DNA of 64,000 nucleotides from Candidatus Saccharimonadia bacterium (GTDB taxonomy: Bacteria; Patescibacteriota; Saccharimonadia; UBA4664). The notes beneath the pieces are model-generated. The model saw nothing but the letters and a program-made list of their open reading frames with translations, was not told the origin of the DNA and did no database searches. The position numbers and the translations under genes were made by a program. Each line of letters starts with the position of its first letter. Position 1 is the first letter of the stretch. Positions 29,264 through 58,505 of the stretch are shown piece after piece. The stretch covers positions 65,010 through 129,009 of the forward strand of contig DATIIV010000012.1 of NCBI GenBank assembly GCA_035479295.1, written 5' to 3'.

Positions 29264-29379
29264 TGTGGTCCCTATTAATGTGCTTATGATTATATACTGC
29301 CTGCCCAGCAGTTGACGAATGCGGTTAAATGGGGGATTATGGGCGGTGCCTTGTACCGAATGTACGGGAGTAATTAGAC

Positions 29380-32283: not shown

Positions 32284-32679
32284 ATGGCATTGCGAATTCT
32301 GATTGTCGAAGATTCGGTTAGCATTCGTATGTTGTACCAGGAGGTGCTACACAAGGCGGGCTATGAGGTCGAGGTGGCGACGGACGGCCAGGTAGCCTTG
32401 AGGCTGGCTCAGGCGCAGCCGTTCGACTGTATTGTGGTTGACATGTTGATGCCAAACCTTGATGGGCTGGCCTTTCTTAAGGCCTTTGATTGTCGACGTC
32501 ATCCCAAGACGCGCGTGATCATGGCCAGCAACTTGGACGATCCGCAGAAACGCGAGCAGGCGCTGGCGCTGGGTGCGGCCGCCTACATCATCAAGGCCGA
32601 GGTGTCGTTGCCGGAGTTATTGCGCAAGATTGATCCGACGCGGCCTGCTCCCGGAGCTTCGGCCGAGGGCGTGCATTAA
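32284..32679 (+). CDS. receiver-only response regulator
   Basis: ILIVEDS, CIVVDMLMPNLDGLAFL, VIMASNL, AAYIIKAE. 131 aa, ending 30 nt before zwf. Confidence 0.9.
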   Translation: MALRILIVEDSVSIRMLYQEVLHKAGYEVEVATDGQVALRLAQAQPFDCIVVDMLMPNLDGLAFLKAFDCRRHPKTRVIMASNLDDPQKREQALALGAAAYIIKAEVSLPELLRKIDPTRPAPGASAEGVH

Positions 32680-34758: not shown

Positions 34759-36987
34759 TTAGCTCTGGGCGGCGGCGCCAGACTCAGCCGTTTTGGCTCT
34801 AGCCTTAGCTTCGGCCGCTGCTCCGTTGGGTTGCGGCAGCACAATTACCGAAGTGGTCTTAAGCGGCAGCGCGAAGCCAAAGATGCTACCCTTGCCCTCC
34901 TCGGACTTAAAAATAATCGAGCCACCTTGGTCCTCGATCACGCGCTTAGCTAGGTACAAGCCCAAGCCGGTGCCGTCCGGCCGCTCGGCCTTGGCGTTCT
35001 CGGCCCGGTAAAACTTGGAGAACAGGTGACGCTTCTCGTTCTCTGGCACGCCAATGCCGCTATCGATTACCAGCACCTCGGCAGCGCCCTCAGACTCGCG
35101 CACCTCCACCGTGACGCTGCCCTTGGGCGTGTAGTAAATGGCATTATCGATAAAATTCATAATCACCTGGCGCGTCTTGCTCTCGTCGATCGACAGCATG
35201 GGCAGCGGCTTGTCGGGCTGCTTAAAGATGAGTTCCAGCTTCTTGCGCTCGGCGCTCGGCCGCAGCTGCTGCACCTCCTGCTGGGCCAGCTCGCTCAAGT
35301 CCACCGGCTGGCGCTGAATCATAAACCGCCCCGAGCTCAGTCGCGACACATTCAGCAGATCGCTCGACATCGACACCATCCGCTCGGCCGCCTCTAGCGC
35401 GTAGTTAACATACTCGCGCTGCTTCACCGTCATGTTGGCCTGGTCGTCATCGAGCGCCATCGACAAGTAGCCGGTAATGGCGGTCAGCGGCGTGCCCAGC
35501 TGGTGCGACGCCATCGAGATGAAGTCGTCTTTGGTCTTATCCAGCACCTGCAAGTTGCGGTTGGCGGTGCGCAGTCGGTGCGTCGCATTGCGAATCCGCT
35601 CCTGCAGCGTGGCGTTAAAGTGGGCGATCTCTTCGTAGGATTTAGCGTTCTCAATCGCTACGGCTAGTTCTTTGCGGACGATATCGAGCAGCGTCAGATC
35701 CTGGCCCGAATACATTTCGCCACTCATCTTGTAGCCCAGGAAGAGATAGCCCACTAGCTCTTTCTCGGTGCTTAACCTAATAATGACGCCTAGGCCATGC
35801 TCCTCTAGGAATGATTTGGTTGCACCGGGCTCAAGCTCATCTGCTACCAAGGTGCTAGCGTTAATGTGCTCTAAATCCTTGTAGGTAAGTTTATAACGGG
35901 GCTCGTCACCAATGAATGTACGACTATAAATACTGTTGTTCTCGACAATGATGATTTGACCAGTAGCGATGCGCAATGACCAACAGAGCGTGCGCAATGA
36001 CTTCTTGAGGAGCGGTTCAAGTAAGAGCTCTGAAGTCAGAATCTCGCTTAAATCATCGAGCACGATCTGACTGTCGTAGCGATCTCGAAAGAATATGCTG
36101 TCGGTGACCTTCTCGAACAGTCGGCGTAAAGGCTGAAAGGTAATGGCTAGAAATAGCGCCAGGGCAACAAAGACACCAGTTTGGGCTAGCGGGATATTAT
36201 TCTGAAAGAGAATGTTGCTTGCCGCTAGGATGGTAATTCCATACAGGCCAATAAAAGTTGTAAGAAGCAAAAGATAGGCAACTGATCGGGCGACGGCTAG
36301 CCTGATACTAAAGAGTCGATGCTTAACGATAGCGTACGAGACCGACCCCACCAAGAAAACGGTTAGCAATGGGCCGATGCGCGATATGTCCCAGTTGCCG
36401 ACGATAGCCGGAATGACAATGTTTGTGAGCACAGCCAAGATAATAAAACCCGCTATTCCCAGCATAATAAGACGAGTTTGAGCGCGAAGCCGCAAGTCGA
36501 TTCCAGTGTTCCGGTACAGCTTCCAGAGGTAGTAGCAAGATAGTCCAAACATCACCAAGATGAAAATGGGGTAGAGAGTATAAAGGCTGCCGAGAGCAAC
36601 GTTGGTTCCTCCGTCGGGCCGCTTTGAGACGGGACCAACCACGAAATCGCTTAAAGAGAAGATGGTGCCAGCAATAATAATGACGGCACTAACAAGCTGT
36701 CTCCGCTTGCTGGCGCTTTGTTTGCCGCCAAAGTAAAACGCAAACAACGTTATGGTGGCTAACACGAGAAAACCGGCGCCAAAGTCAAGGCGAGCAAAGA
36801 ACTGATCAAGGCCAAGCGTGGGAGCTCGGTCGGTAAGATAATTGAAGATCGTCCAGGCGGTGATTGACAGGGAGATGCCAAAAAACGCCCGACTCTCGGC
36901 TCGCTGAGGGTTACGCATAAACACGAGCGAGCCGAGAGCCAAATTGCTTACTGAGGCGAGTATGAGGATGGCGAGGTCAAATATCAT
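34759..36987 (-). CDS. multi-TM + GAF sensor histidine kinase (HisKA_7TM/PrsK-like architecture), paralog A
   Basis: About nine N-terminal TM helices (MIFDLAILILASVSNLALGSLVFMRNP...). GAF-like block (LVGYLFLGYKMSGEMYSGQDLTLLDIVRKELAVAIENAKSYEEI). H-box FISMASHQLGTPLT, N-box NFIDNAIYYT, DSGIGV, GTGLGLYLAK. ATGA overlap with the upstream gene. Confidence 0.9.
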   Translation of the reverse strand: MIFDLAILILASVSNLALGSLVFMRNPQRAESRAFFGISLSITAWTIFNYLTDRAPTLGLDQFFARLDFGAGFLVLATITLFAFYFGGKQSASKRRQLVSAVIIIAGTIFSLSDFVVGPVSKRPDGGTNVALGSLYTLYPIFILVMFGLSCYYLWKLYRNTGIDLRLRAQTRLIMLGIAGFIILAVLTNIVIPAIVGNWDISRIGPLLTVFLVGSVSYAIVKHRLFSIRLAVARSVAYLLLLTTFIGLYGITILAASNILFQNNIPLAQTGVFVALALFLAITFQPLRRLFEKVTDSIFFRDRYDSQIVLDDLSEILTSELLLEPLLKKSLRTLCWSLRIATGQIIIVENNSIYSRTFIGDEPRYKLTYKDLEHINASTLVADELEPGATKSFLEEHGLGVIIRLSTEKELVGYLFLGYKMSGEMYSGQDLTLLDIVRKELAVAIENAKSYEEIAHFNATLQERIRNATHRLRTANRNLQVLDKTKDDFISMASHQLGTPLTAITGYLSMALDDDQANMTVKQREYVNYALEAAERMVSMSSDLLNVSRLSSGRFMIQRQPVDLSELAQQEVQQLRPSAERKKLELIFKQPDKPLPMLSIDESKTRQVIMNFIDNAIYYTPKGSVTVEVRESEGAAEVLVIDSGIGVPENEKRHLFSKFYRAENAKAERPDGTGLGLYLAKRVIEDQGGSIIFKSEEGKGSIFGFALPLKTTSVIVLPQPNGAAAEAKARAKTAESGAAAQS

Positions 36988-37796
36988 GCGGGCGTAGGTC
37001 CTGTAAATGCTGGAAACTTGAAGACTTCTTGAAGACCCTCGCCCCGGAACAGCCAGCCAAATCGCTTTGGGTCATTAACGCAAAGGCGCGCCATCCAGTC
37101 CTCGATATCCACCCAAACGGGCAGGCTCAGACTTGAACCAAGGTAAGGCTTCCAACCTATCCCCTCGTAGTAGCTAAAGGGTTCACCAAGTCTGCGCTTG
37201 AAGCTGTTGTGAGCGGACTCATCAACTATTGTAACCCAATAGCGAGCAGCTTGCTCTAGTGTATACTTACATGCCATGTGGTAGATCGCCTTGGCGATCC
37301 GGCCCGAGTATGCGTGGCGATGGTAGGCCGGGACTACCCCCATTGTCACCATGTCTAGCGTAGTTTTGGGGCCAAAGTCGACAGCAGCGGCTTGTAGCGC
37401 CTGAGTTAGCGGTAGGTTCCAGTACCGACCAGGCTCGCTTGACTCGATGTCGGTGAGGCTTTTAAAGCCGAGGGGCGACCGTCTGATCACTCGCAACATT
37501 CCGGCTGGTAGACCGTTTGCATGGTCGATAAGGATAAAGAATGTGCTGTAGGGATCATATGGCCCATACTCTCTCTCTAGATCCTCTGGCGTGTCCCCGT
37601 AGAAAGCGAATACGTCCGCCTCCGCCAACCGCGCGACTGGCAATGCCCAGTGCGGTGTGCCGGTTTGGGGCTCGATGCGATAGACGCCAAATGGCTGCGA
37701 TGGCGCGGCATTACCCTGGTCCATGAGGCGGCGAATCAGGTCCTTAGAGCGAATCGTCTCTTCCCACTGTTCTCGCACTAGCCCCGTAGCGACCAC
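36984..37796 (-). CDS. GNAT/LuxI-fold N-acyltransferase-like protein (tentative), cassette A
   Basis: ARLAEADVFAFYGDTPEDLEREYGPYDPYSTFFILIDHANGLPAGMLRVI parallels the LuxI/NAS block (R..VF....W....E.D.YD..S.H....G...G..R). A later segment is DMVTMGVVPAYHR...IAKAIYHMACKYTLEQAARYWVTIVD...FKRRLGEPF. The GTG start shares one base with the upstream stop (TAGTG). Confidence 0.5.
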   Translation of the reverse strand: MVATGLVREQWEETIRSKDLIRRLMDQGNAAPSQPFGVYRIEPQTGTPHWALPVARLAEADVFAFYGDTPEDLEREYGPYDPYSTFFILIDHANGLPAGMLRVIRRSPLGFKSLTDIESSEPGRYWNLPLTQALQAAAVDFGPKTTLDMVTMGVVPAYHRHAYSGRIAKAIYHMACKYTLEQAARYWVTIVDESAHNSFKRRLGEPFSYYEGIGWKPYLGSSLSLPVWVDIEDWMARLCVNDPKRFGWLFRGEGLQEVFKFPAFTGPTPA

Positions 37797-38137
37797 TAGG
37801 TCTCCTTAAACTCGATGTGTGAAGCCTTGAAATAACGCTGAGTAAACTCCACAGCGTTATTCACATTGAAAGCCTTGCAGGTATATATGTCAACGCTAAA
37901 GAAGAGGCGCGGTTGCTCCCAGGCGTATAGGTGAGCCCCCGATGTTTCCCAGTGAATCCAGCCAGCCCAGCCGTAGAGGTCTGAGCGGTGTGTCACCGGT
38001 TTGATGAGTGCTGTCATGCCTGTTACGACAGAGAGCTGTTCAAGGTAGTCTTTAATTTGGGCATCATCAATAGGTTGGGCGCAATAGCCCTCAATAATAA
38101 GCCGCTGCCGGTATATCTCCGGCGCTAGATCCCTCAC
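37796..38137 (-). CDS. S-adenosylmethionine-decarboxylase-like (AdoMet_dc fold) small protein
   Basis: GTG start after AAGGAG with an 8-nt spacer. At 113 aa it is colinear with small bacterial SpeD/SpeH: RLIIEGYCAQPID aligns with ELYGC, WIHWETSGAHLYAWEQ aligns with the (L)AESHISIHTWPE processing/active-site strand, and FFSVDIYTCKAF aligns with AALDVFTCG. Confidence 0.55.
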   Translation of the reverse strand: MRDLAPEIYRQRLIIEGYCAQPIDDAQIKDYLEQLSVVTGMTALIKPVTHRSDLYGWAGWIHWETSGAHLYAWEQPRLFFSVDIYTCKAFNVNNAVEFTQRYFKASHIEFKET

Positions 38138-38215
38138 CCCATAGCTCCTTGTTCAGGCCCATCATACTCTTCTTAGGACCGCTAAGTCTACGTAAAAAGA
38201 TGAAATTAAAGCGTT

Positions 38216-38623
38216 TTACGCCGCCCCAGCTGCTCCCGGAATCTCGTCCTTGGTATAGCCCGCCAAGATGCCGCGGACGATCTCCTCGACCTGCTTGGGC
38301 TTGTGCTCGCTCTTGATGATGTAGCGGACGGCGCCGAGCTCGAGGGCGGTCTGGACGTCGCTGTTGCCGGCCAGGTTGGTGAGCACCACCACCGGAAGAT
38401 TGGCCACGGCCGGATCGGCCTTGAGCTGCTTGAGCACCTCCATGCCGTTAAGCTTGGGCATCATGATGTCGAGCAGAATGAGCGTGGGGTTAACCGAGCG
38501 TGCTTTGTCGAGGCCCTCTTGGCCGTCGGTGGCCAGTTCAACCTCGTAATTATTCGAGGCAAAGATCGTCTGATACATCCGCGAGAGTAAGGCGTCATCT
38601 TCGATGATTAGAATCTTAGGCAC
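38216..38623 (-). CDS. receiver-only response regulator (cassette A)
   Basis: ILIIEDD, LILLDIMMPKLNGMEVL, VVVLTNL, VRYIIKSE. The preferred start is GTG 38623 with GAGG 8 nt upstream. Alternative ATG starts lie at 38650 and 38734. Confidence 0.85.
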   Translation of the reverse strand: MPKILIIEDDALLSRMYQTIFASNNYEVELATDGQEGLDKARSVNPTLILLDIMMPKLNGMEVLKQLKADPAVANLPVVVLTNLAGNSDVQTALELGAVRYIIKSEHKPKQVEEIVRGILAGYTKDEIPGAAGAA

Positions 38624-38737
38624 ACTGAAAACCTCATTTACGCCCATCATACACGAGGCAAGCGAGAAGCGGAAGCCCTTAAGCATAAGCTTTATCAAAG
38701 GACAAATTTCGCGGTTGAGCCGATGGAGCGGCAAATG

Positions 38738-39658: not shown

Positions 39659-40444
39659 CTATGCCTCCACGAGCTTGATGGTCCACAGATCGGAGGTCAG
39701 CTCGCGATCGGTGAGGTAGGCGAGCGGCAGGTAAAAGTAGCCGGCGTCGCCCCAGCGCTTGCCCCACGAGTTGCGGCAGATGAAGTAGCCAGCGGCCATG
39801 TCGTAGCCCACCACCAGGATGGCGTGGCCACCCAGGAGCTCCTCGTTGGGCTTCGGCACGGGAATGACGCCGGTGCGGTTGGCCTCGTCGCTCTCAAAGC
39901 TGGCGTAGACCGCGATGCCGGCCACGAACGGGCGGCCGGCCGCCAAGCAGCTGCGCATGTTGGTGTCGTCGCTCGTTACCTTGATGCGAGCGTACGACAG
40001 CACCTGGTTGGAGAGCGCGTCAGCGTAGCACTGGGCGGACGGCTTGACGGTGAAGCGGCTGATGTCGTACAGCCACTCGCTCTCGGGCGGCACGCCCAGC
40101 TTGGCCAGAACCTTCATGCCGTCGCGAAGGTAGGCGCCGGCGTCGGTGTCGACGGTGCCCTCGCGTGCGCGCTCATTGTAGTAAATGAACAGCCGGCTCG
40201 GGCCGATGGGCTCCTGACCCTGCCGGCGACGCTCCATGTCGTAGGCCGCCGCCAGCGCGTTGGCGGTGCAGCTGCCCAGCTGGCCCTGGTCGTACACGTC
40301 CGGGCAGTCCGGGCGCAGGTCGATGCTATTGGGCAGCTGCGAGGGGCGGATGTCTAGGCCGGCGCGGTCGAACTTGTGGTCGCGGGGGTCGCGCGGATCG
40401 GGGATATTCCCGAGGCCGTGGCCGCGGGGCGTTACGAGCGCCAT
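39659..40444 (-). CDS. papain-like (C1 family) cysteine peptidase, no signal peptide (paralog 2)
   Basis: DQGQLGSCTANAL, GGHAILVVGYD, CRNSWGKRWGDAGYFYLP. Colinear with 31316..32113 and roughly two-thirds identical by eye. Confidence 0.9.
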   Translation of the reverse strand: MALVTPRGHGLGNIPDPRDPRDHKFDRAGLDIRPSQLPNSIDLRPDCPDVYDQGQLGSCTANALAAAYDMERRRQGQEPIGPSRLFIYYNERAREGTVDTDAGAYLRDGMKVLAKLGVPPESEWLYDISRFTVKPSAQCYADALSNQVLSYARIKVTSDDTNMRSCLAAGRPFVAGIAVYASFESDEANRTGVIPVPKPNEELLGGHAILVVGYDMAAGYFICRNSWGKRWGDAGYFYLPLAYLTDRELTSDLWTIKLVEA

Positions 40445-50678: not shown

Positions 50679-51461
50679 ATGACGAAATTGTTGGCTGGCA
50701 AGGATGTGGCCGGATTCATTCAGGAGCGCCACGCCCAGACGGTGCGAGGCCTTCTGGTTGCGCCCAAATTGGCGATTGTGCGCCAGGGCGCCACGCCGGC
50801 TACCGATGCCTATCTGCGCGTTAAGAAGCAGTACGGCGCCGATATCGGTGTGATGGTTGATACTTACACCGAGGCGCCGGCCGATCTGATGGCCCGCATT
50901 GCCGCGCTCAACGCCGACCCCAGCGTCACCGGTATTATCGTGCAGCTGCCGTTTGCCGATCAGCCGGACCTGGCTGAGCAAGCGCTGGCGGCGGTGGCGC
51001 CGGCCAAAGATGTGGACGGCCTGAGCCCCCACTCACCATTTGAGGCCGCCACTCCCAAGGCTATTCTGTGGCTGCTGGCGGCCTACAACGTTGACCTGAG
51101 TGGCCGCCGCATCGCCGTGGTGGGGCAGGGCCGGCTGGTCGGCGCGCCACTGGCCGACCGCCTCGACGCCAGTGGCCATGACGTGGCGCGCCTCGACGAG
51201 CACACACCCAACCTGGCCGCCGCCCTGCACGACGCCGGCGCTATTATCACCGCCACCGGCCAGCCCGGCCTCATCACCTCGGCCATGGTAGCCGACGGCG
51301 CCATCGTGGTCGACGCCGCCTCGCCCCGCAGCGACCTGGCCCGCGACCTCTTCGACCGCGCCGACCTCATCATCACGCCCAATCCCGGCGGCGTCGGCCC
51401 CATGACCGTGGCGTCATTATTCGACAATTTACTGATTGCGGCGCAGACTCGTCATCCCTAA
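50679..51461 (+). CDS. folD: bifunctional methylenetetrahydrofolate dehydrogenase/cyclohydrolase
   Basis: LLAGKDVA, YLRVKKQ...GI, GIIVQLPF, DVDGL, VVGQGRLVGAPLA, PGGVGPMT. Confidence 0.8.
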   Translation: MTKLLAGKDVAGFIQERHAQTVRGLLVAPKLAIVRQGATPATDAYLRVKKQYGADIGVMVDTYTEAPADLMARIAALNADPSVTGIIVQLPFADQPDLAEQALAAVAPAKDVDGLSPHSPFEAATPKAILWLLAAYNVDLSGRRIAVVGQGRLVGAPLADRLDASGHDVARLDEHTPNLAAALHDAGAIITATGQPGLITSAMVADGAIVVDAASPRSDLARDLFDRADLIITPNPGGVGPMTVASLFDNLLIAAQTRHP

Positions 51462-51912
51462 GCTATCTGTCTCTAGCTAAGGCAGCGCTCATATTGTAGT
51501 ATCGTTTCGGGCCAGGACCGCTAGGTTTTGGCCGCCATCTCCTAACTTACTCAGAGATGAGGTTAGTGTGTCGCGCCCTCGTTGGCCCTGAACCGCCACC
51601 CCCGCCCGAAACAGCTCAAGACTTGGAGGTAGAACTAGAGCCGGACCCCGATACGCTCTCGGCTCTCGACGGTCTGCCGCCGGGCGATCACGTCGCCTGG
51701 CTCGATGCCCATGATCCCAACGCTAGATAGGATCGAGATGTCGCATACCAAGGCACGCGGAACGGCCAACAATCCCCGACCGGGAAGTGAGAGGGGTGTG
51801 GGCTCCAGCCAGACCTCCACCTCCACTACCTCCTCCTCGGTCACCAAATAACAAGCATTCGCCTAGCGATTCTTCTCGCTGGTTGCCCGTCGGGCCTGGT
51901 GGCTCGGCCGGT

Positions 51913-52299
51913 CTAAACCTTCTTGGCTAGTAGCGCCTTTACCCGCTCCGTCACCTCTTTGGGCGTCATCTCGGCCTTCACAATGTAGTCGTCGGCGGCC
52001 ATTTTGTAGACGCGCGTGGCCGTCTCGGTGTCGCCCATGTTGGTTAGCACGACCACTTTAGCGTCGCGCCCATTGGCCTGAGAACGCAGCTTTTGCAGCA
52101 TCTCCAAGCCATTCATATTGGGCATCATCAAATCGAGCAAAATAATATCAGGTGCAAACGACTCAATTAATTCCAGTCCACCGGCGCCATCGCCGGCCGT
52201 GGCCACCTCGTAGCCCTCATTCTCAAACTTCACCCGATACATCTGCACGATCGCCATGTCGTCCTCGATGATCGCCACTTTGACTTTTTGGTCACTCAT
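51913..52299 (-). CDS. receiver-only response regulator
   Basis: VAIIEDD, IILLDLMMPNMNGLEML, VVVLTNM, DDYIVKAE. 128 aa. Confidence 0.9.
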   Translation of the reverse strand: MSDQKVKVAIIEDDMAIVQMYRVKFENEGYEVATAGDGAGGLELIESFAPDIILLDLMMPNMNGLEMLQKLRSQANGRDAKVVVLTNMGDTETATRVYKMAADDYIVKAEMTPKEVTERVKALLAKKV

Positions 52300-52362
52300 A
52301 TCTGTAGTTTATAACGCGATTTAACCATAAGCAATTATTTCTCAGCTAATTTGTAGCTGCTG

Positions 52363-53010
52363 CTACTCGATAGGCAGACGATAGATGCGGTTAAGAATCT
52401 GGAGAGCAGTAAGCTTCTCTGCTGCCTCCAGCGGCTTGCCCACCGTAATGGCATAAGAAGGCCATAGCCATCGGCCGCGGCACCACTCGATGTGCACTGG
52501 AATTATCTTTACTTGAGGAGTCTTGGCTAGAACTTCAATGCCGCTTCGGGGCCGAATCTTATGCGGTGTGCGCTTGCCCTCAGGAAAGATCATGATAGAT
52601 TGGTGGTGTTTCAGAAACAGCTGGGCTGCAGTGAGGCCATAAATGTAAGAGGCATTGGCGCTAGCCGGGAAAGCTCCAAACGCAAAGAGGAAGTGACGTA
52701 GGAACTTGTCGAAGAGGGCGTTATGGGCAAAAAAGCGGAGAGGTGCTAGGCCGGCAAGGATGCCTGGTGGAAGTGCGACGCAAATTATAAACGGGTCAAA
52801 CATGCTCTGGTGATTTGCTGCAACTATATAGCAATGATCAGGACTAATATCACCAGGCTGGAGGTTGACTCTAGTCCGATGCGGTAGCAAGTGGGTAATG
52901 AGGCGAATTGGCCAGTAAAGGACGCGCTGACTGAGTAAGATCACGCGAAGACGGCCAGGCGATAAAAGCGAGTCAAGGGACGCAAAAGATTTTACTTGAG
53001 TAGCCGACAT
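52363..53010 (-). CDS. PlsC-family (lysophospholipid/1-acyl-glycerol-3-phosphate-type) acyltransferase
   Basis: HX4D motif in VAANHQSMFDPFI and motif III IFPEGKRT. 215 aa. Confidence 0.75.
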   Translation of the reverse strand: MSATQVKSFASLDSLLSPGRLRVILLSQRVLYWPIRLITHLLPHRTRVNLQPGDISPDHCYIVAANHQSMFDPFIICVALPPGILAGLAPLRFFAHNALFDKFLRHFLFAFGAFPASANASYIYGLTAAQLFLKHHQSIMIFPEGKRTPHKIRPRSGIEVLAKTPQVKIIPVHIEWCRGRWLWPSYAITVGKPLEAAEKLTALQILNRIYRLPIE

Positions 53011-53018
53011 CGGTAAAA

Positions 53019-53049
53019 TTGATGATATGTAATTGCGTAATTATATAAT
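53019..53049 (+). promoter_or_regulatory. sigma-70-like promoter in an AT-rich divergent intergenic region
   Basis: TTGATG, a 17-nt spacer, then TATATA (or TATAAT with 19 nt). The 83-bp intergenic region has very low GC, unlike the rest of the window. Confidence 0.45.
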
Positions 53050-53093
53050 AATATTAAAGGCAATGCAAGATGCAAAATGAGGAGTAATAGATA

Positions 53094-53807
53094 GTGACAA
53101 ACAGGCAGGAGGGGGCGGCTGAGTCGGGGAAAGGGGGACTTGGCTCGAGGCATTTGCATTTTGAGGAGCATGGACTGGTCTTTCGCGAGTTAACAGCAGA
53201 GGCCGATTTTAGGGCCGCTTATCGGCTGCGTTATAAAATCTGTGTAGAGCAGCTGCATTGGGTGCAGGGGGTTCCCGAAGAGCAGCTTGAGTACGATGAT
53301 TATGATAAGTACTCGTACCACTTTGGCTGTTTTAGGGAGAGTAAGCTTATAGGGTATATGCGTATGACGCCAGAAGATAATTCCGTGGGCACCATGAGCC
53401 GCGACCACTTTGGCCATCTCTGGCAAATTGACCCTCAGTACCCTACCCACGAAACGGCTGACCTATCCCGACTCTTGGTGGATCGGCCCTATCTGCATAA
53501 ACCCTTGCTGCTGCGGCGAATTCTGATTGGTTTATACCGACTGGCCTACGGAAGGGCAGAATTGAGTCGGCCGCGCATTCGGTATTGGTATTTTATTACC
53601 ACGGGACGCTTGCTTAAGGCTTTAAGATGGCAGTTAGGCTTACCCGTCAAAGTGTTTGGCCACGATCAGACCTCAGATGGCAAAACCACCTATGCAGTCG
53701 GCCTCGATTTACAGCGGGGTCGCCGGAGACTCGCTATCCTCGCACCTTGGCGTCTTATCTACTTTGCCAGGGCTAAGCGGCTTCAACGCGATAATGAGCG
53801 TCCATAG
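53094..53807 (+). CDS. LuxI/N-acyl-amino-acid-synthase-fold acyltransferase (OlsB-like / exosortase-associated-acyltransferase-like), cassette B
   Basis: GTG start 9 nt after GAGGAG. FRELTAEADFRAAYRLRYKICVEQLHWVQGVPEEQLEYDDYDKYSYHFGCFRESKLIGYMRM reproduces the conserved block of autoinducer-synthase/NAS families. A later segment is ETADLSRLLVDRPY...WYFITTGRLLKALRWQLGLP. Confidence 0.65.
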   Translation: MTNRQEGAAESGKGGLGSRHLHFEEHGLVFRELTAEADFRAAYRLRYKICVEQLHWVQGVPEEQLEYDDYDKYSYHFGCFRESKLIGYMRMTPEDNSVGTMSRDHFGHLWQIDPQYPTHETADLSRLLVDRPYLHKPLLLRRILIGLYRLAYGRAELSRPRIRYWYFITTGRLLKALRWQLGLPVKVFGHDQTSDGKTTYAVGLDLQRGRRRLAILAPWRLIYFARAKRLQRDNERP

Positions 53808-53844
53808 TATCAACTTAAGCAAAAGAGCTATAGAATAAAGATTA

Positions 53845-56013
53845 ATGGATTATCGGGCATTACTTCTATTTTTAGTAACGGCTGCGAATCTTTTCCTGGG
53901 TCTTGCCGTTTACTTTCGCAATCCTCGCAATCGCCAGTATATCTATTATTTTGCTTTTGCCTCATCGATAGCGCTCTGGACCTTAACCAACGGGCTCTAT
54001 CAGATTTTCCCGCCGCGCCTCCTTTTATCGATGGCGCTTTTGAGCTATGCCAGTGCCATCCTTATGGCCACCTTTTTCCTGCTGTTTAACCGTGAGTTTA
54101 CCAAAATTAAGCTAGGTCCTGACTGGCTGATCCTGCTTGTGGGCGGCCTAATGGCCTTAGTCGCGCTCAAACCTGGCGTACTAGCCTCCTCGATCGCTGC
54201 TGATCGCTCCATTGTTACTACTCCGGGAATCGCTGTTATGGCCATCTTGCTGGTTGGGTTTCTGTCGTGGGGCTTATTACTGTTGGTTGCATCGTTGCGC
54301 CGAGCTCGAGGCTTAGTCCGCACTCAGCTGCAGTTTATGTTGGCTGGTATGACAACTGCCGCCTTAATGGGGGTGCTATTTAACTTAGCACTACCGGTAA
54401 TGGGCCATATTTATACCTATGTTTATCTCGGCCCCGACTTCACGACTTTTTACGTCGCTGCCATTGCCTACAGCGTTATTCGGCAGCGTCTCTTTAACTT
54501 ACGGGTAGCTATTGCTCGGACGATAGCGTATCTTTTGGTCTTAACGGCTATGGCTGGCATGTACATTGCGGCTATTTTAAGTATAACTTCATACTTCTTG
54601 CCGTCGGGTCGGATCTCTGGCAGCCAAAATCTGATCTCGACCGTCGTAGCGATTGTACTGGTTTTCACCTTCCAACCCCTCCGCCGCTTCTTTGAGCGCG
54701 TTACCGACAGTGTGTTTTATCGTGATCGGTACGATTCGCAGGTGGTGTTGAATGAGTTCAGCAAGGTGCTGGTGTCGGAGCTGGATCTGGATCGGATTCT
54801 GCGCCGCAGCCTCAGTCAGCTGTGCCGCGACGTGCACATTCAGTTTGGGCAGCTGGTGATCTTTAATCAGGACCGAGTGTACCGGGTGGAGCACTTTGGG
54901 CCGCTGCCCAAGCGGCTGATGGTGGCGCCGGAGCTGCGGCGGCTGGATGAGTCGCTGCTGGTGGCCGATGAGCTTGAGGCCGGCGAGCGCAAGACCATCA
55001 TGGACGAGCACGCCGTGCGTGTATCGGTGCGGCTGGCCACCCGCGATGAGTTCGTGGGCTACCTGCTGCTGGGCGATAAGCTGTCGGGCGATATTTACTC
55101 CAACCAAGACATTGAGCTGCTGGAGATTATCGGTAAGGAGCTGGCCGTGGCGATTCTGAATGCCAAGGCCTATGCCGAGATCGAGGCTTTTAACCGCACA
55201 CTGCAGGAGCGGGTCGATCACGCCACCAATCGACTGCGCGTGGCTAACCGCCACCTCAAAGAGCTTGATAAAGCCAAAGATGAGTTTATTAGCATGGCCT
55301 CGCACCAGCTGCGCACGCCGCTCACTACCATTAAGGGCTATCTGAGCATGATGCTGGAGGGCGATGCCGGGCGTCTCACCGCCGCCCAGAAGCAGTTTGC
55401 CGGCTACGCTTTTAGCTCGTCGGAGCGCATGGTTAACCTCATCTCCGACCTGCTTAATGTAAGCCGCCTAAGTGCCGGCCGTTTTCTGATTCAAACCAAG
55501 CCCACCGATATGGTGGCGATGGTGGCCGACGAGGTGCGTCAGCTGCAGAGCCATGCCGCGGCTAAGCACATTAGCCTCATCTTTGAGCAGCCACCAGCTG
55601 ACTTTCCGCTGGTGGAGATCGATGAGAACAAGACGCGCCAAGTCATCATGAACTTTATCGACAACGCCATTTACTACACCCAGACCGGCAGCGTGCGGGT
55701 GCGGCTTACCTTGGCCGGGCCGATCGTGCGGCTCGAGGTCATCGACACTGGCATTGGCGTGCCAGCAGCCGAGAAGCGCCACCTGTTCACCAAATTTTAC
55801 CGGGCCGAGAATGCCCAGGTGGTGCGGCCAGACGGTACCGGTCTAGGTCTGTATTTGGCCAAACGAGTGGTGGAAGATCAAGATGGTACAATACTATTTA
55901 GTAGCACCGAAGGCAAGGGTTCGGTGTTTGGATTTGAGCTACCGATTAAGCCCCGCCACAAGTCGGCGCCCAAATCGGCCAACGATAAGCAGAAGGAAAA
56001 CCAGCATGGCTAA
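53845..56013 (+). CDS. multi-TM + GAF sensor histidine kinase (HisKA_7TM/PrsK-like architecture), paralog B
   Basis: About nine TM helices (MDYRALLLFLVTAANLFLGLAVYFRNP...). GAF-like block (FVGYLLLGDKLSGDIYSNQDIELLEIIGKELAVAILNAKAYAEI). H-box FISMASHQLRTPLT, NFIDNAIYYT, DTGIGV, GTGLGLYLAK. Colinear with 34759..36987. Confidence 0.9.
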   Translation: MDYRALLLFLVTAANLFLGLAVYFRNPRNRQYIYYFAFASSIALWTLTNGLYQIFPPRLLLSMALLSYASAILMATFFLLFNREFTKIKLGPDWLILLVGGLMALVALKPGVLASSIAADRSIVTTPGIAVMAILLVGFLSWGLLLLVASLRRARGLVRTQLQFMLAGMTTAALMGVLFNLALPVMGHIYTYVYLGPDFTTFYVAAIAYSVIRQRLFNLRVAIARTIAYLLVLTAMAGMYIAAILSITSYFLPSGRISGSQNLISTVVAIVLVFTFQPLRRFFERVTDSVFYRDRYDSQVVLNEFSKVLVSELDLDRILRRSLSQLCRDVHIQFGQLVIFNQDRVYRVEHFGPLPKRLMVAPELRRLDESLLVADELEAGERKTIMDEHAVRVSVRLATRDEFVGYLLLGDKLSGDIYSNQDIELLEIIGKELAVAILNAKAYAEIEAFNRTLQERVDHATNRLRVANRHLKELDKAKDEFISMASHQLRTPLTTIKGYLSMMLEGDAGRLTAAQKQFAGYAFSSSERMVNLISDLLNVSRLSAGRFLIQTKPTDMVAMVADEVRQLQSHAAAKHISLIFEQPPADFPLVEIDENKTRQVIMNFIDNAIYYTQTGSVRVRLTLAGPIVRLEVIDTGIGVPAAEKRHLFTKFYRAENAQVVRPDGTGLGLYLAKRVVEDQDGTILFSSTEGKGSVFGFELPIKPRHKSAPKSANDKQKENQHG

Positions 56014-56455
56014 CACTGATACCGCCCATCAACCGGCCCAGCTGGGGGCCGGCAAGATCATCTTAATCGCCGAGGACGATCCGTTTATTTCGCGCATGTA
56101 CGAGATCAAACTGCAGGGCGCTGGCTTTACGGTTATCGTTAAGAATAATGGTCGCGACGCCTTTGAGGCTATTAAGTCTGAGCATCCGAGCCTGGCCGTC
56201 CTCGACATTAATATGCCCGAGCTGAGCGGTCTTGAGGTATTATCGGCACTACAGAGCGACGGCTTTGATCTGACGACCATGCCGGTAATCGTGCTAACCA
56301 ATTCGTCGGAGCTGTCGGATCGCAAAAAGGCGCTCAGCTACGGCGCCGAGTACCTGGTAAAGGCCGAGCTCACGCCGCGCGAGGTGCTTAATATGATCGA
56401 CGCCAAGCTCGGCCTCGACCCTGGCGACAGCGAGGCTAAGCCGGCCGATGCTTAG
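56006..56455 (+). CDS. receiver-only response regulator (cassette B)
   Basis: ATG at 56006 overlaps the kinase stop by 8 nt. ILIAEDD, LAVLDINMPELSGLEVL, VIVLTNS, EYLVKAE. Confidence 0.9.
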   Translation: MANTDTAHQPAQLGAGKIILIAEDDPFISRMYEIKLQGAGFTVIVKNNGRDAFEAIKSEHPSLAVLDINMPELSGLEVLSALQSDGFDLTTMPVIVLTNSSELSDRKKALSYGAEYLVKAELTPREVLNMIDAKLGLDPGDSEAKPADA

Positions 56456-56627
56456 CGCACTGCTCTTGGCGGTGGTGGTCTTCGCGGCCAGTTTTGTAGC
56501 CTTAATGGCCGTCGAAAAGCTGATTCACCGCTGGACCTACAACCCCGACCGGAGTTATCGCTGGGGCGTGTGGCTGTTCTCGAGTTTATTCGCAGTTTAT
56601 GCGTTTGTGACGGCGTTAGGCCGGTAA
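56448..56627 (+). CDS. 59-aa two-TM membrane peptide (not in ORF track because it is under 60 aa)
   Basis: The ATG overlaps the response-regulator stop (ATGCTTAG). Translation is MLSALLLAVVVFAASFVALMAVEKLIHRWTYNPDRSYRWGVWLFSSLFAVYAFVTALGR. This gives two hydrophobic helices flanking a basic/aromatic loop. Confidence 0.45.
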   Translation: MLSALLLAVVVFAASFVALMAVEKLIHRWTYNPDRSYRWGVWLFSSLFAVYAFVTALGR

Positions 56628-56678
56628 GGTTAACTCCGTTTTATAGCTAGCAGCCTGAATCTCAAAACCCCTCGTCTC

Positions 56679-56765
56679 GGCGCTTCCTGCCTTATAGTTC
56701 TCCCGTGAGGACTGTCTGAGCAAAGCGAGTTTCCGCAACGGGAGAACTATAAGGCAGGAAGCGCC
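56679..56765. repeat. perfect 28-bp inverted repeat with 31-nt spacer
   Basis: GGCGCTTCCTGCCTTATAGTTCTCCCGT (56679-56706) pairs with ACGGGAGAACTATAAGGCAGGAAGCGCC (56738-56765). Imperfect outer arms (CTGAATCTCAAAACC / GGTTTGAGGCTCAG) extend the structure. Confidence 0.85.
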
Positions 56766-56807
56766 TGGAACTAGGCAGAAGTGGTTTGAGGCTCAGATCT
56801 AGCAGTA

Positions 56808-56842
56808 TTGACTTAAGCATACATTAAACATACAATGTATGT
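56808..56842 (+). promoter_or_regulatory. strong sigma-70 promoter with overlapping palindromic operator for the TA operon
   Basis: TTGACT (56808-13), a 17-nt spacer, then TACAAT (56831-36). The palindrome ACATAC-AAT-GTATGT (56828-42) overlaps the -10. The ATG is only 9 nt after the -10 hexamer. Confidence 0.6.
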
Positions 56843-56845
56843 ATT

Positions 56846-57130
56846 ATGAGTAATGTTCTATTAACCATCAAAACCGATCCAGATACTAAAGAGCAGCTCA
56901 AGGCCTTTGCGGCAGAGCTGGGCGTATCAAGTACGGCTTTTGTAAATATGGTTGTAAAGCAGGCGCTTCGTGATCGTCGCGTGGTGCTAAGCACCGACCT
57001 GGAGCCAACAGCCTACTTAGAAGACATCATGCGCCAGGCCGAGGCAGATTACCTGGTTGACCGCGACATCACCCACACCAAGGGGAACCGAGACACTCTA
57101 TCGCATTTAGATAGTCTTATGAGCAAGTAG
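56846..57130 (+). CDS. RelB/DinJ-type (ribbon-helix-helix) antitoxin
   Basis: LLTIKTDPDTKEQLKAFAAELGVSSTAFVNMVVKQAL is a typical RHH N-terminus. It ends 1 nt before the toxin gene, in low-GC sequence. Confidence 0.75.
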   Translation: MSNVLLTIKTDPDTKEQLKAFAAELGVSSTAFVNMVVKQALRDRRVVLSTDLEPTAYLEDIMRQAEADYLVDRDITHTKGNRDTLSHLDSLMSK

Positions 57131-57131
57131 C

Positions 57132-57392
57132 TTGAAGGTCGATTTTACTAAGTCGTTCGATAAGCAATTTACAAAGCTGACGCATAAGCGCCAAGAACAG
57201 GCCAAAGCGGCCGTCGCATTGTTTTTGCACGATGCCCTGCACCCGGTATTGCGCAATCACGCCCTAAGAGGCGAGTGGAAAGGCTACCACAGTATTAGTG
57301 CTGGTGGTGATCTACGCTTGCATTTTAAGATGGTCGACGAGAATACGGCGTTATTTGTGGCAGCAGGAAGCCATAGTCAACTTTATAAATAG
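57132..57392 (+). CDS. RelE/YafQ-family mRNA-interferase toxin
   Basis: TTG start. FDKQFTKL...LRNHALRGEWKGYHSISAGGDLRLHF...VAAGSHSQLY matches the RelE/YafQ pattern. Confidence 0.75.
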   Translation: MKVDFTKSFDKQFTKLTHKRQEQAKAAVALFLHDALHPVLRNHALRGEWKGYHSISAGGDLRLHFKMVDENTALFVAAGSHSQLYK

Positions 57393-57419
57393 CAGGTCTA
57401 CCTTATACTTATTTAGAGC

Positions 57420-58505
57420 TTACGGCAGACTAAGCGTGTCGCGAAGGCGCCGCAAGGTGTAGGGCTGGCCGGGCAGCTGATATTGGCCTGGTGCGGTAGT
57501 AACGGCCGTAGCGTAGCCGGCCTCTTGCACGATCTGGATGGTGGTGGCGTTGTAGTTGCCGTAGGGGTAGGCAAAGTCGCGGATGGGGTGGCCGAGCTCT
57601 TGCTCGAGCTGAGTCTTGGAGTCGATAATCTCGTGGCGCTGGTCGTCGGCGCTGAGGCTCGCCAGATTGGGGTGGTCCAGGGTGTGGCCGCCAATGGTAA
57701 TGAGCCCCGAGCGATCGAGCGTACGTACCTGATCCCAGCTCAGGTAGGCGTCGCCACAGCCACCCGGCGGTTGGACGGGATCGTTGTAGCGGCGGCCCGC
57801 GCCGATACACCAATTGCTCTTAGCGCCTCCATTAATGATGTAGTAAGTGGCCCTCATATGGTGCTGCTGCAACAAGGTAAAGGCTTGCATCTGGTTGGCA
57901 AAGCCATCGTCGAAGGTTAGGACGACGGGCTTGGCCGGCAGCAAATTGTTGCCAGCCAGCGCCGCTGCCACCTGGTCGAGGCCAATGGTGGTGTAGCCGT
58001 GCTGCTCCAGGTACTCCAGCTGCTGCTCGAAGTTGGGCGGGGTATAGTGATAGAGCACGATGGGGATGAAGAGCTCGCCGGCTACCGCGGATGCAGACGA
58101 GTTCGGGATGGGCCCCTTAACGGCTTCGTTAGCGGCATCGGTGAGCCGGTTGTTCCACTGCGTGAGCGAAGCTCGTAGCGAAGCAATGGATTGCTGAGCA
58201 GCGGTAAATCGACCTTGCGCAAGGTCTAATTGAATGCTGGCCAGGGTGCTACTAAGAGTTTTGGGACTTACGAGTTCCAGATGAGCCTTGGTCTGGCGGG
58301 CCTCGAAGTCTTTGACCGCTCGAGTAGCGGCGCCGAGCGAGACCCGCAGCGCATGCGGCGCCTGTGATGGGCCGGCGACTGCATCGGGGGCGGGCAGCGT
58401 TAGCGCCACCATGGCGCCACTACCCAGCAGGGCCAACCCGACTAAGCTAAAACATATCATTTTTTTGGCCCGCCCTAAGCTAAGGCCGCGCAACGAAAAG
58501 CCCAT
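57420..58505 (-). CDS. membrane-anchored polysaccharide deacetylase (NodB homology domain)
   Basis: N-terminal TM. NodB motifs VVLTFDDGF, ATYYIING and GGHTLDHPNL. Confidence 0.85.
   Translation of the reverse strand: MGFSLRGLSLGRAKKMICFSLVGLALLGSGAMVALTLPAPDAVAGPSQAPHALRVSLGAATRAVKDFEARQTKAHLELVSPKTLSSTLASIQLDLAQGRFTAAQQSIASLRASLTQWNNRLTDAANEAVKGPIPNSSASAVAGELFIPIVLYHYTPPNFEQQLEYLEQHGYTTIGLDQVAAALAGNNLLPAKPVVLTFDDGFANQMQAFTLLQQHHMRATYYIINGGAKSNWCIGAGRRYNDPVQPPGGCGDAYLSWDQVRTLDRSGLITIGGHTLDHPNLASLSADDQRHEIIDSKTQLEQELGHPIRDFAYPYGNYNATTIQIVQEAGYATAVTTAPGQYQLPGQPYTLRRLRDTLSLP

Follow-up and report, generated by a model that had tools for sequence, protein, structure and literature searches.

A LuxI/NAS-fold acyltransferase gene next to a 7TM histidine kinase gene in a Saccharimonadia genome: a candidate acyl-signalling module

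Organization of cassette B and of a paralogous module

The window, a 64,000-nucleotide stretch of DNA from a Candidatus Saccharimonadia MAG (CPR/Patescibacteria), contains the gene cluster examined here, cassette B (Table 1). Each of the six ORFs described in an earlier sequence-only reading was present at the coordinates it gave. The divergent intergenic region was also found to be very AT-rich as claimed (26.5% GC compared to ~58% for the window). Sigma-70-like hexamer pairs, which are consensus matches only, occur on both of its strands (ATGATA-16-TATAAT on the plus strand and TTTGCA-17-TATTAT on the minus strand), and an imperfect palindrome extends from 53027 to 53054. An AGGAG sequence lies 9 nt upstream of the acyltransferase GTG start. 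Both of the 8-nt start/stop overlaps noted previously were observed, one at the kinase/RR2 junction (ATGGCTAA) and the other at the RR2/59-aa ORF junction (ATGCTTAG); kinase/RR junctions overlap in the related loci L001 and L004 too. The tight translational coupling of synthase to kinase that had been claimed was not borne out, as a 37-nt gap without overlap separates these two genes.

Table 1. Features of cassettes B and A in the window
Feature	Coordinates	Strand	Remarks
Cassette B
RR1, 128-aa receiver-only response regulator	51913-52299	-	Response_reg 89.5 bits
PlsC/LPLAT-family acyltransferase, 215 aa	52363-53010	-	PF01553 46.9 bits; divergent from GNAT gene
AT-rich divergent intergenic region, 83 bp	53011-53093		promoter-like sites, both strands
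LuxI/NAS-fold GNAT acyltransferase, 237 aa, putative acyl-signal synthase	53094-53807	+	GTG start
Sensor histidine kinase, 722 aa	53845-56013	+	HisKA_7TM, HisKA, HATPase_c
RR2, 149-aa receiver-only response regulator	56006-56455	+	Response_reg 74 bits, residues 19-131
59-aa ORF, accessory, reality uncertain	56448-56627	+	two hydrophobic segments
Cassette A (34759-38734)
REC-only response regulator	38216-38734	-
AdoMet-decarboxylase-like protein, 113 aa	37796-38137	-	AdoMet_dc 44.6 bits
GNAT, 270 aa	36984-37796	-	AF2 model
7TM kinase, 742 aa	34759-36987	-	HisKA_7TM 36 bits

RR1 and RR2 are both receiver-only, in agreement with the sequence-only reading; a Pfam search of RR2 identified Response_reg and no output domain. 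No DNA-binding regulator is encoded in cassette B, which counts against a signalling role, and receiver-only regulators cannot by themselves provide transcriptional control. Between genomes RR1 shares 82–87% identity, compared to only 42–54% for the GNAT. The 59-aa ORF matched no family among Pfam and TIGRFAM-type models. It shares 47% identity with a 60-aa ORF at the equivalent position of L004 and has no counterpart in L001 or L007, so that it cannot be retained as a core component of the plus-strand unit.

Cassette A lies 16 kb from cassette B. Its 270-aa protein had no Pfam match; however, the AF2 model (pLDDT 85) adopts a GNAT fold, with the top TM-scores obtained for FeeM (0.70–0.73, target-length normalised) followed by BjaI. 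The stop of this GNAT gene overlaps the kinase start (36984–36987), and another locus, L017, keeps the same order of GNAT then kinase with overlapping genes. The kinases of the two cassettes are 45% identical over their full length (28% in the TM region, 49% in the GAF-like region and 62% in the core). With both cassettes in one genome, the arrangement resembles parallel signalling channels.

Family and fold relations of the acyltransferase and kinase

In a Pfam search the 237-aa acyltransferase matched Acetyltransf_5 (PF13444) above the cut-off (32 bits, cut-off 22.4) but fell below those of Autoind_synth (20.9 bits, cut-off 24) and FeeM (17.8 bits, cut-off 27). The match to TIGR03694, confined to the N-terminal half, was also below its cut-off (43.7 bits, E 2e-11, cut-off 112), as were those to the AHL-synthase equivalogs. 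Hence, of the profiles named in the sequence-only reading, Acetyltransf_5 was matched above its cut-off and Autoind_synth and TIGR03694 below theirs, and these shortfalls weigh against a signal synthase. The OlsB model scored 17.5 bits, its cut-off being 350. Of 26 members of the acyltransferase family, all matched TIGR03694, 15–16 matched AHL-synthase models and only 6 matched OlsB. In NCBI the identical protein is recorded as 'GNAT family N-acyltransferase [Candidatus Saccharimonadia bacterium]'.

The family profile matched LasI at 3.6e-15 over nearly the full LasI length, with values of 1e-12 to 4e-15 for LasI, TofI, EsaI and BjaI; the same profile did not match FeeM. A further profile match, P0028, is a canonical LuxI whose gene converges on a LuxR gene, indicating that the family borders true AHL synthases. 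When the AF2 model of the acyltransferase (pLDDT 81) was compared by Foldseek, the top ten matches were all AHL synthases. Between 170 and 186 residues aligned with the extended LuxI/FeeM subclass, compared to ~140 with generic GNATs. No OlsB structure was among the PDB matches, and as regards aminolipid enzymes the structural comparison is therefore one-sided. Seven of the nine LuxI signature residues are retained (R46, W56, D68, D71, R90, S125 and R126); the two changes, C50 for F27 and D123 for E101 (LasI numbering), are a point against a signalling function. From the model and the family profile we conclude that the predicted structure is that of the LuxI/NAS subclass of GNATs, as the sequence-only reading had proposed.

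The kinase exceeded the HisKA_7TM cut-off (29.6 bits, cut-off 28.6), and hydropathy analysis identified 7–9 TM segments within about residues 1–285, which upholds the earlier description of a polytopic kinase. A GAF-like linker (about residues 286–450) precedes HisKA (65 bits) and HATPase_c (83.5 bits). The GAF assignment is less secure than the multi-TM one, as GAF_2 was matched weakly (E 0.049) and a profile built on residues 290–450 yielded weak matches (E between 0.011 and about 0.3), among which GAF domains ranked best (DevS, 0.011). The suggested relation to PrsK was recovered as the best curated-family match of the sensor part, albeit a weak one (TIGR02916, 27 bits, residues 13–442). 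The sensor region of the cassette A kinase weakly matched LuxN, a sensor kinase for AHLs. PrsK and LuxN were the only curated-family matches of these respective regions, and at 24–27 bits both may partly mirror hydrophobic composition.

Conservation of gene order across loci

The genes of cassette B are kept in equal order on independent metagenomic contigs. In each of the seven informative loci (the window, L001, L004, L007/L008, L011, L013 and L016), over which enzyme identity declines from 57% to about 26–28%, a HisKA_7TM kinase gene lies directly downstream of the enzyme gene. The adjacency predicted for relatives is thus present, and its persistence across deep divergence favours a synthase–receptor pair. 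In L013 the two genes abut or nearly abut. Identities to the window proteins for the enzyme, TM domain, GAF-like region and core, respectively, were 54, 46, 72 and 80% in L001, 40, 41, 59 and 68% in L007, and 33, 39, 44 and 58% in L016. This pattern is suggestive of co-divergence of the kinase TM domain with the enzyme, the GAF-like and catalytic parts being more conserved; it is only suggestive because catalytic cores are in general slower to evolve than TM domains.

The PlsC-like protein carries the NHQSMFD (HX4D) and FPEGKR motifs and scored 47.6 bits with TIGR00530, below the cut-off. Its gene adjoins the enzyme gene in four of eight loci (the window, L001, L004 and L013, in the last of which both genes run in one direction, 5 nt apart) and is absent from this position in L005, L007 and L016. 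We conclude that it is a recurrent, not an obligatory, partner of the GNAT gene. An EgtD-like methyltransferase gene and a 117–120-aa ORF lie between PlsC and the RR1 counterpart in L001 and L004; neither is present between the PlsC-like gene and RR1 in the window. MacB_PCD/FtsX and ABC_tran genes are found directly upstream of the enzyme gene in L004 and L016, and the enzyme gene is tandemly duplicated in L004.

A proposed signalling module and its alternatives

Cassette B is quite possibly, if short of probably, a quorum-sensing-like module composed of a putative acyl-signal synthase and a membrane receptor. With the fold and family relations, gene order, junctions, conservation and divergence pattern as a basis, we infer its substrate, product, ligand sensing and output as follows. 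The GNAT would take its acyl chain from acyl-CoA or acyl-ACP and attach it to the amine of a substrate of the amino-acid type, possibly SAM, which AHL synthases use, or else a different amino acid or amine. The resulting lipophilic N-acyl signal would enter the membrane by partitioning, and some relatives may secrete it through a MacB-type ABC exporter. The 7TM domain of the co-transcribed kinase would sense the signal, and the GAF-like linker would pass its state to the HisKA/HATPase core. The kinase would then phosphorylate CheY-like RR2, to which it is translationally coupled, and perhaps RR1 as well; the output may be a phosphorelay or a non-transcriptional response. An accessory role may fall to the PlsC-like acyltransferase, which could add a second acyl group or handle the acyl donor.

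The main alternative, which we consider somewhat unlikely, is a two-step aminolipid pathway of the OlsB/OlsA (or GlsB/GlsA) type. In the first step the GNAT would attach a 3-hydroxy fatty acid to an amino acid by N-acylation; O-acylation by the PlsC-like enzyme would then yield a membrane lipid, whose head group the EgtD-like methyltransferase would modify in relatives. The kinase would monitor the state of the membrane or its lipids and not a diffusible signal. PF13444 is common to aminolipid N-acyltransferases and PF01553 is the OlsA domain (PMC11631085). Both are above cut-off in cassette B, and the PlsC-like protein has kept its HX4D and PEG motifs. Moreover, the PlsC–GNAT adjacency extends to the distant L013 and to Taylorbacteria, its occurrence in half of the loci fits two steps at least as well as signalling, and the methyltransferase that follows PlsC in L001 and L004 is SAM-dependent. 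However, the OlsB score is far below its cut-off and few family members match that model, the closest matches by structure and by profile are LuxI and not aminolipid enzymes (subject to the one-sided comparison), and PlsC is missing beside the enzyme in three loci whereas the kinase is always there. The ols and gls genes are not known to share an operon with a dedicated polytopic kinase gene, and the receiver-only regulators lack direct transcriptional control. An aminolipid pathway under two-component control, the second proposal of the sequence-only reading, is consequently the weaker one.

Saccharimonadia are host-dependent epibionts, which makes sensing of a host cue plausible. The GNAT could be functionally linked to a kinase that senses an external, host-derived cue without making a signal itself. 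It might acylate a protein, an envelope component or a peptide, such as the products of small ORFs that the window, L004 and L016 carry close to the RR, or it might inactivate a host metabolite or an exogenous amine. The great diversity of GNAT acceptors and the failure of the window enzyme to reach any specific family cut-off are in keeping with such roles, but we judge them clearly unlikely, as the fold matches the extended LuxI/FeeM subclass specifically, the enzyme retains the LuxI amino-substrate residues and the small ORFs are not kept across loci. Very improbable is a chance placement of an ordinary GNAT and PlsC beside an ordinary two-component system. The window is rich in two-component genes (its 64 kb encode three kinases and five REC-only RRs); nevertheless, the GNAT-then-7TM-kinase order in seven informative loci whose enzymes share as little as 26% identity, the near-abutting genes of L013 and the independent recurrence of this order with overlapping genes in cassette A and L017 effectively refute fortuitous adjacency.

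A chemical-signalling circuit encoded by cassette B in a CPR bacterium is plausible on sequence grounds. Operons that join a synthase to a polytopic kinase include LuxM/LuxN, AinS/AinR and CqsA/CqsS. The synthase–receptor proposal of the sequence-only reading is favoured by the conserved adjacency, while its assertion that such a pair had not been described was overstated. Bernard et al. (2020) catalogued in silico 18 syntenies of a LuxI homolog with a sensor kinase in CPR genomes, including two from Saccharibacteria (PMC7567580, Table S4), some with an HdtS/PlsC-family gene nearby, and proposed these as complete QS systems. Their work constitutes an independent published prediction of the enzyme–kinase pairing in CPR.

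Organisation of cassette B and the fold of its acyltransferase

All six ORFs that the sequence-only reading had assigned to cassette B were found where it had placed them: a receiver-only (REC-only) response regulator (RR1) and a PlsC-like gene on the minus strand, and a 237-aa acyltransferase of the GNAT fold superfamily, a 722-aa histidine kinase, a second REC-only response regulator (RR2) and a 59-aa ORF on the plus strand. The region separating the two divergent units is indeed very AT-rich, with 26.5% GC over 83 bp compared to a window average of about 58%. It contains sigma-70-like hexamer pairs on both strands, and AGGAG lies 9 nt 5' of the acyltransferase GTG start (53094). No convincing operator repeat was found in these 83 bp, the best candidate being a 71% palindrome, and an Rfam scan of positions 51400-57500 returned no RNA element, only one sub-threshold chance match to a miRNA. 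RR2 shares its first 8 nt with the end of the kinase gene (ATGGCTAA), and the 59-aa ORF in turn shares its first 8 nt with the end of RR2 (ATGCTTAG); both overlaps had been read correctly. The proposed tight translational coupling of synthase to kinase is not literal in the window, because these two genes of cassette B are 37 nt apart. The GNAT stop overlaps the kinase start in cassette A, the paralogous module of the window, and the two genes abut in L013, a contig from a Patescibacteria MAG, on which the kinase frame stays open back to roughly the GNAT stop.

Positions of features in the window and on contigs carrying relatives (L numbers)
Feature	Sequence	Position	Strand	Remark
421-aa protein, solute-binding, Lig_chan and Lig_chan-Glu_bd domains	window	11998-13263	+	GluR0-like
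Third two-component pair	window	25090-27165	-	PAS-HisKA-HATPase kinase, REC-only regulator
GH5 cellulase with fn3 domain; two papain-family (Peptidase_C1) cysteine proteases	window	27260-29428, 31316-32113, 39659-40444	-	all three
Orphan REC-only regulator	window	32284-32679	+	
742-aa HisKA_7TM kinase	window	34759-36987	-	cassette A
270-aa protein	window	36984-37796	-	cassette A; no Pfam match
AdoMet_dc-like 113-aa protein	window	37796-38137	-	cassette A; 44.6 bits
REC-only regulator	window	38216-38734	-	cassette A
RR1	window	51913-52299	-	cassette B
Divergent intergenic region	window	53011-53093		cassette B
Acyltransferase residues 1 to 17-20	window	53094-53160	+	cassette B
94-aa ORF and 86-aa YafQ_toxin match	window	56846-57392	+	directly 3' of cassette B
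EgtD-like methyltransferase (Methyltransf_33, 410 aa) and 117-120-aa ORF	L001	5444-7209	-	between PlsC-like gene and RR1
EgtD-like methyltransferase (Methyltransf_33, 410 aa) and 117-120-aa ORF	L004	2177-4036	-	between PlsC-like gene and RR1
MacB_PCD/FtsX permease and ABC ATPase	L004	4993-7828	+	directly upstream of GNAT
MacB_PCD/FtsX permease and ABC ATPase	L016	4033-5840	+	directly upstream of GNAT

Several further features of the locus were recorded. Conservation is lacking in the N-terminal 17-20 residues of the acyltransferase, where model confidence is also low, and an in-frame TTG at codon 21, directly before the conserved block, is an alternative to the GTG start taken by the NCBI annotation. 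G+C content drops to 48-55% at 52000-55000 (cassette B) and 35000-38000 (cassette A) compared to a window average of about 58-60%, which may stem from TM-rich coding sequence or from horizontal acquisition. RR1 keeps 82-87% identity between genomes whose adjoining GNATs share only 42-54% and whose kinases share about 64%, which points to a much tighter constraint on this single-domain receiver than on the remainder of the locus. Downstream of cassette B, an 86-aa protein matching YafQ_toxin (40 bits) and the preceding 94-aa ORF, which has no Pfam match, are likely a type II toxin-antitoxin pair.

The acyltransferase passed the cut-off of Acetyltransf_5 (PF13444; 32 bits, cut-off 22.4). The sequence-only reading had also named Autoind_synth (PF00765) and TIGR03694 as models for this enzyme, and here it fell short: Autoind_synth scored 20.9 bits (cut-off 24), and TIGR03694 (PEP-CTERM/exosortase-associated acyltransferase, NAS), although the best NCBIfam match at 43.7 bits (E 2e-11), spanned only residues 35-133, the N-terminal half, and was far below its cut-off of 111.95. 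FeeM (17.8 bits, cut-off 27), AHserLSynTraI (15.8 bits, cut-off 250) and the OlsB model NF052554 (17.5 bits over 44 residues only, cut-off 350) failed as well.

The proposed LuxI/NAS-type fold was borne out by structure and by family profiles. An AlphaFold2 model built from six homologs had a mean pLDDT of 81, and the top 10 Foldseek matches were all AHL synthases, which places the enzyme in their extended GNAT fold. A full-library profile search with the acyltransferase family recovered 923 representatives at E<=1e-3. The 26-sequence profile of the nearest of these matched LasI, TofI, EsaI and BjaI over nearly their full length (4e-15 to 1e-12) and did not match FeeM at E<=1; with a narrower Saccharimonadia profile TofI, RpaI and BjaI were still matched at about 1e-3. 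All 26 members match TIGR03694, which is the best curated model for each of them; 15-16 match AHL-synthase models and only 6 match OlsB, and PF00765 is matched by 19 of the 26 wider family members at E<=0.01. The LuxI signature R-x3-F-x5-W...D-x2-D...R...E-x-S-R (LasI R23, F27, W33, D44, D47, R70, E101, S103, R104) aligns with R46, C50, W56, D68, D71, R90, D123, S125 and R126. Seven of the nine residues are identical, the exceptions being C50 for F27 and D123 for E101, both shared by all or nearly all members of the Saccharimonadia clade. As TIGR03694 matches the same N-terminal region, the signature residues may not be SAM-specific.

An identical protein in NCBI comes from a Candidatus Saccharimonadia MAG, which places the window in a CPR genome. 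The acyltransferase clade is very small: of 5.8 billion clusters at 90% identity it accounts for six. The taxonomic breadth of the family rests on the 923-representative search, since a word-index search for homologs with the profile of 26 sequences gave just 8 proteins. A scan of genome contigs with the close-family alignment yielded no confirmed relative, and a metagenome-contig scan yielded none beyond one contig already among the loci. We conclude that the enzyme is a LuxI/NAS-fold N-acyltransferase assignable to no characterised equivalog.

The kinase, its receivers and the second module

The domain layout proposed for the kinase, with membrane helices followed by GAF and HisKA/HATPase domains, stands for the domains that passed Pfam cut-offs, namely HisKA_7TM (29.6 bits, cut-off 28.6), HisKA and HATPase_c. 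Residues 1-285 form a multi-pass region, for which a hydropathy scan counted 7-9 helices. The GAF assignment comes from weak but mutually consistent matches: GAF_2 matched residues 313-437 with E 0.049, and a five-sequence profile of residues 290-450 gave only weak matches (E 0.011 to about 0.3), headed by GAF domains (DevS at 0.011, 3o5y, 3k2n and NlH2). PrsK (TIGR02916), suggested earlier as a model for this protein, was the best curated match of the sensor half, aligned over residues 13-442, and failed with 27 bits against a cut-off of 300. The sensor half of the cassette A kinase matched Vibrio LuxN with 24.6 bits (cut-off 1550), and the LuxN model was not matched by the cassette B sensor region. 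Both the PrsK and the LuxN matches may be inflated by hydrophobic composition. Membership of the LuxI, TIGR03694, OlsB, PrsK and LuxN families was rejected for the cassette B proteins, every one of these curated cut-offs having been failed.

The Pfam scan detected no receiver domain in either cassette kinase. RR1 and RR2 are receiver-only in Pfam and NCBIfam, in agreement with the earlier claim of no DNA-binding output, and a DNA-binding output domain was present in none of the window's scanned response regulators. The locus holds no Autoind_bind protein as a LuxR-type receptor; the neighbour of the enzyme is a histidine kinase. With a third two-component pair and an orphan regulator, the 64 kb contain five receiver-only regulators in total.

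Cassette A lies 16 kb from cassette B, and the two kinases are 45% identical. Its 270-aa protein was confidently modelled as a GNAT (pLDDT 85). By TM-score normalised to target length FeeM ranked first (0.70-0.73) and BjaI next, and in sequence the match to the cassette B enzyme was weak (E 0.017, 191 residues aligned). The order of response regulator, AdoMet_dc, GNAT and kinase is kept in L017, whose GNAT is 62% identical. The order of GNAT and kinase in cassette A makes "GNAT then 7TM kinase" a repeated design in this genome. The presence of a SAM-decarboxylase-like gene beside an enzyme of LuxI/FeeM fold may mean that the amine substrate is an unusual one. Elsewhere in the window, the 421-aa protein is a prokaryotic glutamate-receptor channel of the GluR0 kind in a CPR (Patescibacteria) genome, and the GH5 cellulase and Peptidase_C1 proteins may be secreted hydrolases for an epibiotic or scavenging lifestyle.

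Neighbourhoods in relatives and the choice between signal and lipid

The acyltransferase-kinase adjacency noted by the sequence-only reading holds up in relatives, being kept in seven loci with the window included. These are all the loci with downstream sequence in the CPR-type branch, and the 7TM kinase is the invariant neighbour of the enzyme. Contigs L006, L010 and L015 were too short for any neighbouring genes to be read.

Gene order in relatives and identity (%) to the window acyltransferase and to parts of the window kinase
Locus	Enzyme	Kinase TM	GAF-like	Core	Arrangement
L001	54	46	72	80	one strand: RR, 117 aa, EgtD-like methyltransferase, PlsC; other: GNAT, 7TM kinase, RR
L004	52	45	72	80	L001 order with upstream MacB_PCD, ABC_tran and second GNAT paralog; 60-aa ORF after RR
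L005	42				FolD, RR1, then divergent GNAT; without PlsC
L007/L008 (kinase values, L007)	40	41	59	68	GNAT, 7TM kinase, RR; without PlsC
L016	33	39	44	58	MacB/FtsX, ABC_tran, GNAT, 7TM kinase, two small ORFs, RR; without PlsC
L013	28	24	-	38	PlsC, GNAT (5-nt gap), 7TM kinase without GAF
L011	26				GNAT, then gene homologous to kinase residues 1-216 (E 1e-24)
L014	24-26				canonical LuxI (P0028) convergent with LuxR gene

The PlsC-like gene adjoins the enzyme in four of eight loci (window, L001, L004 and L013) and was rejected as an obligatory partner, since it is not beside the enzyme in L005, L007 or L016. A core role for the 59-aa ORF, for example as signal precursor, was discarded because the ORF is missing in L001 and L007. 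A MacB-type exporter occurs in two of the eight loci (L004 and L016), and the tandem GNAT paralog of L004 (P0011, 265 aa) is 34% identical. The L013 enzyme carries the NCBI name acyl-homoserine-lactone synthase, and the canonical LuxI next to a LuxR gene in L014 indicates that the acyltransferase family borders true AHL synthases. In the two closest relatives, L001 and L004, the PlsC-like gene and RR1 are separated by a SAM-dependent methyltransferase and a 117-120-aa ORF of no family. Both are missing from the window, where this gap is 63 bp. L001 also has a SAH hydrolase and a PfkB kinase within a few kb.

The unit that does not vary is enzyme, polytopic kinase and receiver. Read most economically, and we hold this tentatively at a little under even chances, the unit would pair a signal synthase with the membrane receptor for its signal; product, ligand and output are our inference. 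The LuxI/NAS fold of the enzyme and the duplicated module point this way, as do the exporter genes and tandem enzyme duplication in relatives, and the locus lacks the DNA-binding regulator of a simple regulated biosynthetic operon. The pattern of divergence adds to this: across the alignments the kinase membrane domain diverges along with the enzyme while other kinase parts are held, as expected of a specificity-determining ligand site, but this is only suggestive because TM regions generally evolve fast. Its chief competitor, which we regard as unlikely, is an aminolipid pathway of the OlsB/OlsA kind. A PlsC partner recurs beside the enzyme, the HX4D motif (NHQSMFD) and FPEGKR are readable in the translation of the window's PlsC-like gene, and the adjacency of PF13444 (32 bits) and PF01553 (46.9 bits) is a pairing typical of aminolipid synthesis (OlsB/OlsA and GlsB/GlsA; PMC11631085). 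However, the earlier proposal of such a pathway fails as an OlsB equivalog match (17.5 bits against 350), PlsC is lost in three relatives, and it is the kinase that stays constant beside the enzyme. Compared to the OlsB/OlsA and GlsB/GlsA pairs, in which a PF13444 N-acyltransferase likewise adjoins a PF01553 O-acyltransferase, the cassette B enzyme leaves OlsB models unmatched, and its relatives do not require the pair and always have a dedicated kinase attached. The signal and aminolipid readings are not exclusive, as a 3-hydroxyacyl product could receive its second acyl chain from PlsC.

Taking the signal-synthase reading of both cassettes together, Saccharimonadia would run at least two parallel private channels, each pairing a LuxI/FeeM-fold enzyme with a co-evolving 7TM-GAF kinase; we consider this joint proposal doubtful. 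The signals would be new N-acyl amines or amino acids and not classical AHLs, and that of cassette A may come from a decarboxylated substrate supplied by the AdoMet-decarboxylase-like enzyme. The kinase would bind its signal inside the membrane, and the CheY-like receivers would relay to a non-transcriptional output, e.g. pili or host attachment. If true, a LuxI-fold synthase would for the first time be paired with a histidine-kinase receptor, and signalling chemistry would for the first time have been demonstrated in a CPR epibiont.

Significance and comparison with known systems

CPR bacteria are ultra-small epibionts, and to our knowledge the literature names no signalling molecule of theirs and says next to nothing on how they sense hosts and each other. 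Cassette B matters mainly as a clean experimental entry into CPR signalling, since it is a compact and tractable candidate with one 237-aa enzyme, one kinase and a second module for comparison within one genome. Should the pairing prove real, the signal chemistry of LuxI-fold enzymes would extend to 7TM-GAF histidine kinases and to a lineage where it was only predicted, and the poorly understood TIGR03694/PrsK pair of PEP-CTERM systems might be clarified. If the product is instead a membrane aminolipid, the locus bears on membrane building by lipid-scavenging CPR cells.

With the LuxI AHL synthases (LasI, TofI, EsaI, BjaI, RpaI and MesI) the enzyme shares nearly full-length profile homology and the residues R, W, D-x2-D, R and S-R, but it falls below the Pfam cut-off and differs in F27->C and E101->D. 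In LuxI/LuxR systems the receptor is of the LuxR type, whereas the partner here is a histidine kinase. TIGR03694 and PrsK of PEP-CTERM systems are the best curated models for the enzyme and the kinase sensor and share the layout of multiple TM helices, GAF and kinase, although cassette B scores far below both cut-offs (43.7 against 112 and 27 against 300). The partner of PrsK is the sigma-54-type PrsR, while the cassette B regulators are REC-only and include no PrsR. We know of no exosortase context for the Saccharimonadia lineage, and exosortase was unmatched among the roughly 45 of 68 candidate ORFs of the 64-kb window that were scanned against Pfam. In the LuxM/LuxN, AinS/AinR and CqsA/CqsS systems of Vibrio, the synthase gene adjoins a polytopic kinase that binds the lipophilic product in its TM domain, and Vibrio genomes carry several parallel quorum-sensing channels. 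Their kinases are hybrid and feed LuxU/LuxO, and LuxM/AinS and CqsA are not of the LuxI fold. The cassettes share this synthase-next-to-kinase layout and, in cassette A, a weak LuxN match of the sensor, but their kinases are non-hybrid, with a GAF-like linker and stand-alone receivers.

The closest precedent is the screen of CPR and DPANN genomes by Bernard et al. 2020 (mSystems, PMC7567580), which makes the earlier statement that such a synthase-kinase pair was not described an overstatement. Their Table S4 lists these syntenies in Giovannoni-, Kerfeld-, Nomura-, Ryan-, Taylor-, Uhr-, Vogel- and Yonathbacteria, WWE3 and two Saccharibacteria; the Taylorbacteria entry has an HdtS/PlsC-family gene three genes away, and several of the kinases matched a CqsS sensory-domain HMM. 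The authors put these syntenies forward as complete quorum-sensing systems (PMC7567580). Like their entries, cassette B is known from genes alone and combines a CPR genome with a LuxI-like GNAT gene adjoining that of a multi-TM sensor kinase. The kinases of the two Saccharibacteria entries are 2 and 4 genes away, whereas that of cassette B is adjacent, and the catalogue is without a GAF-like linker, REC-only outputs, TM co-divergence, a MacB exporter or a second AdoMet_dc-GNAT-kinase module. Our literature searches found no experimental study of CPR/Saccharibacteria LuxI-like enzymes. The pairing in cassette B is therefore an already predicted kind of system. What is new in the window is a very small, divergent Saccharimonadia clade, with the enzyme's fold confirmed structurally; to this come a GAF-like linker, outputs that are REC-only, the co-divergence pattern, the exporter association and the second, AdoMet_dc-containing module.
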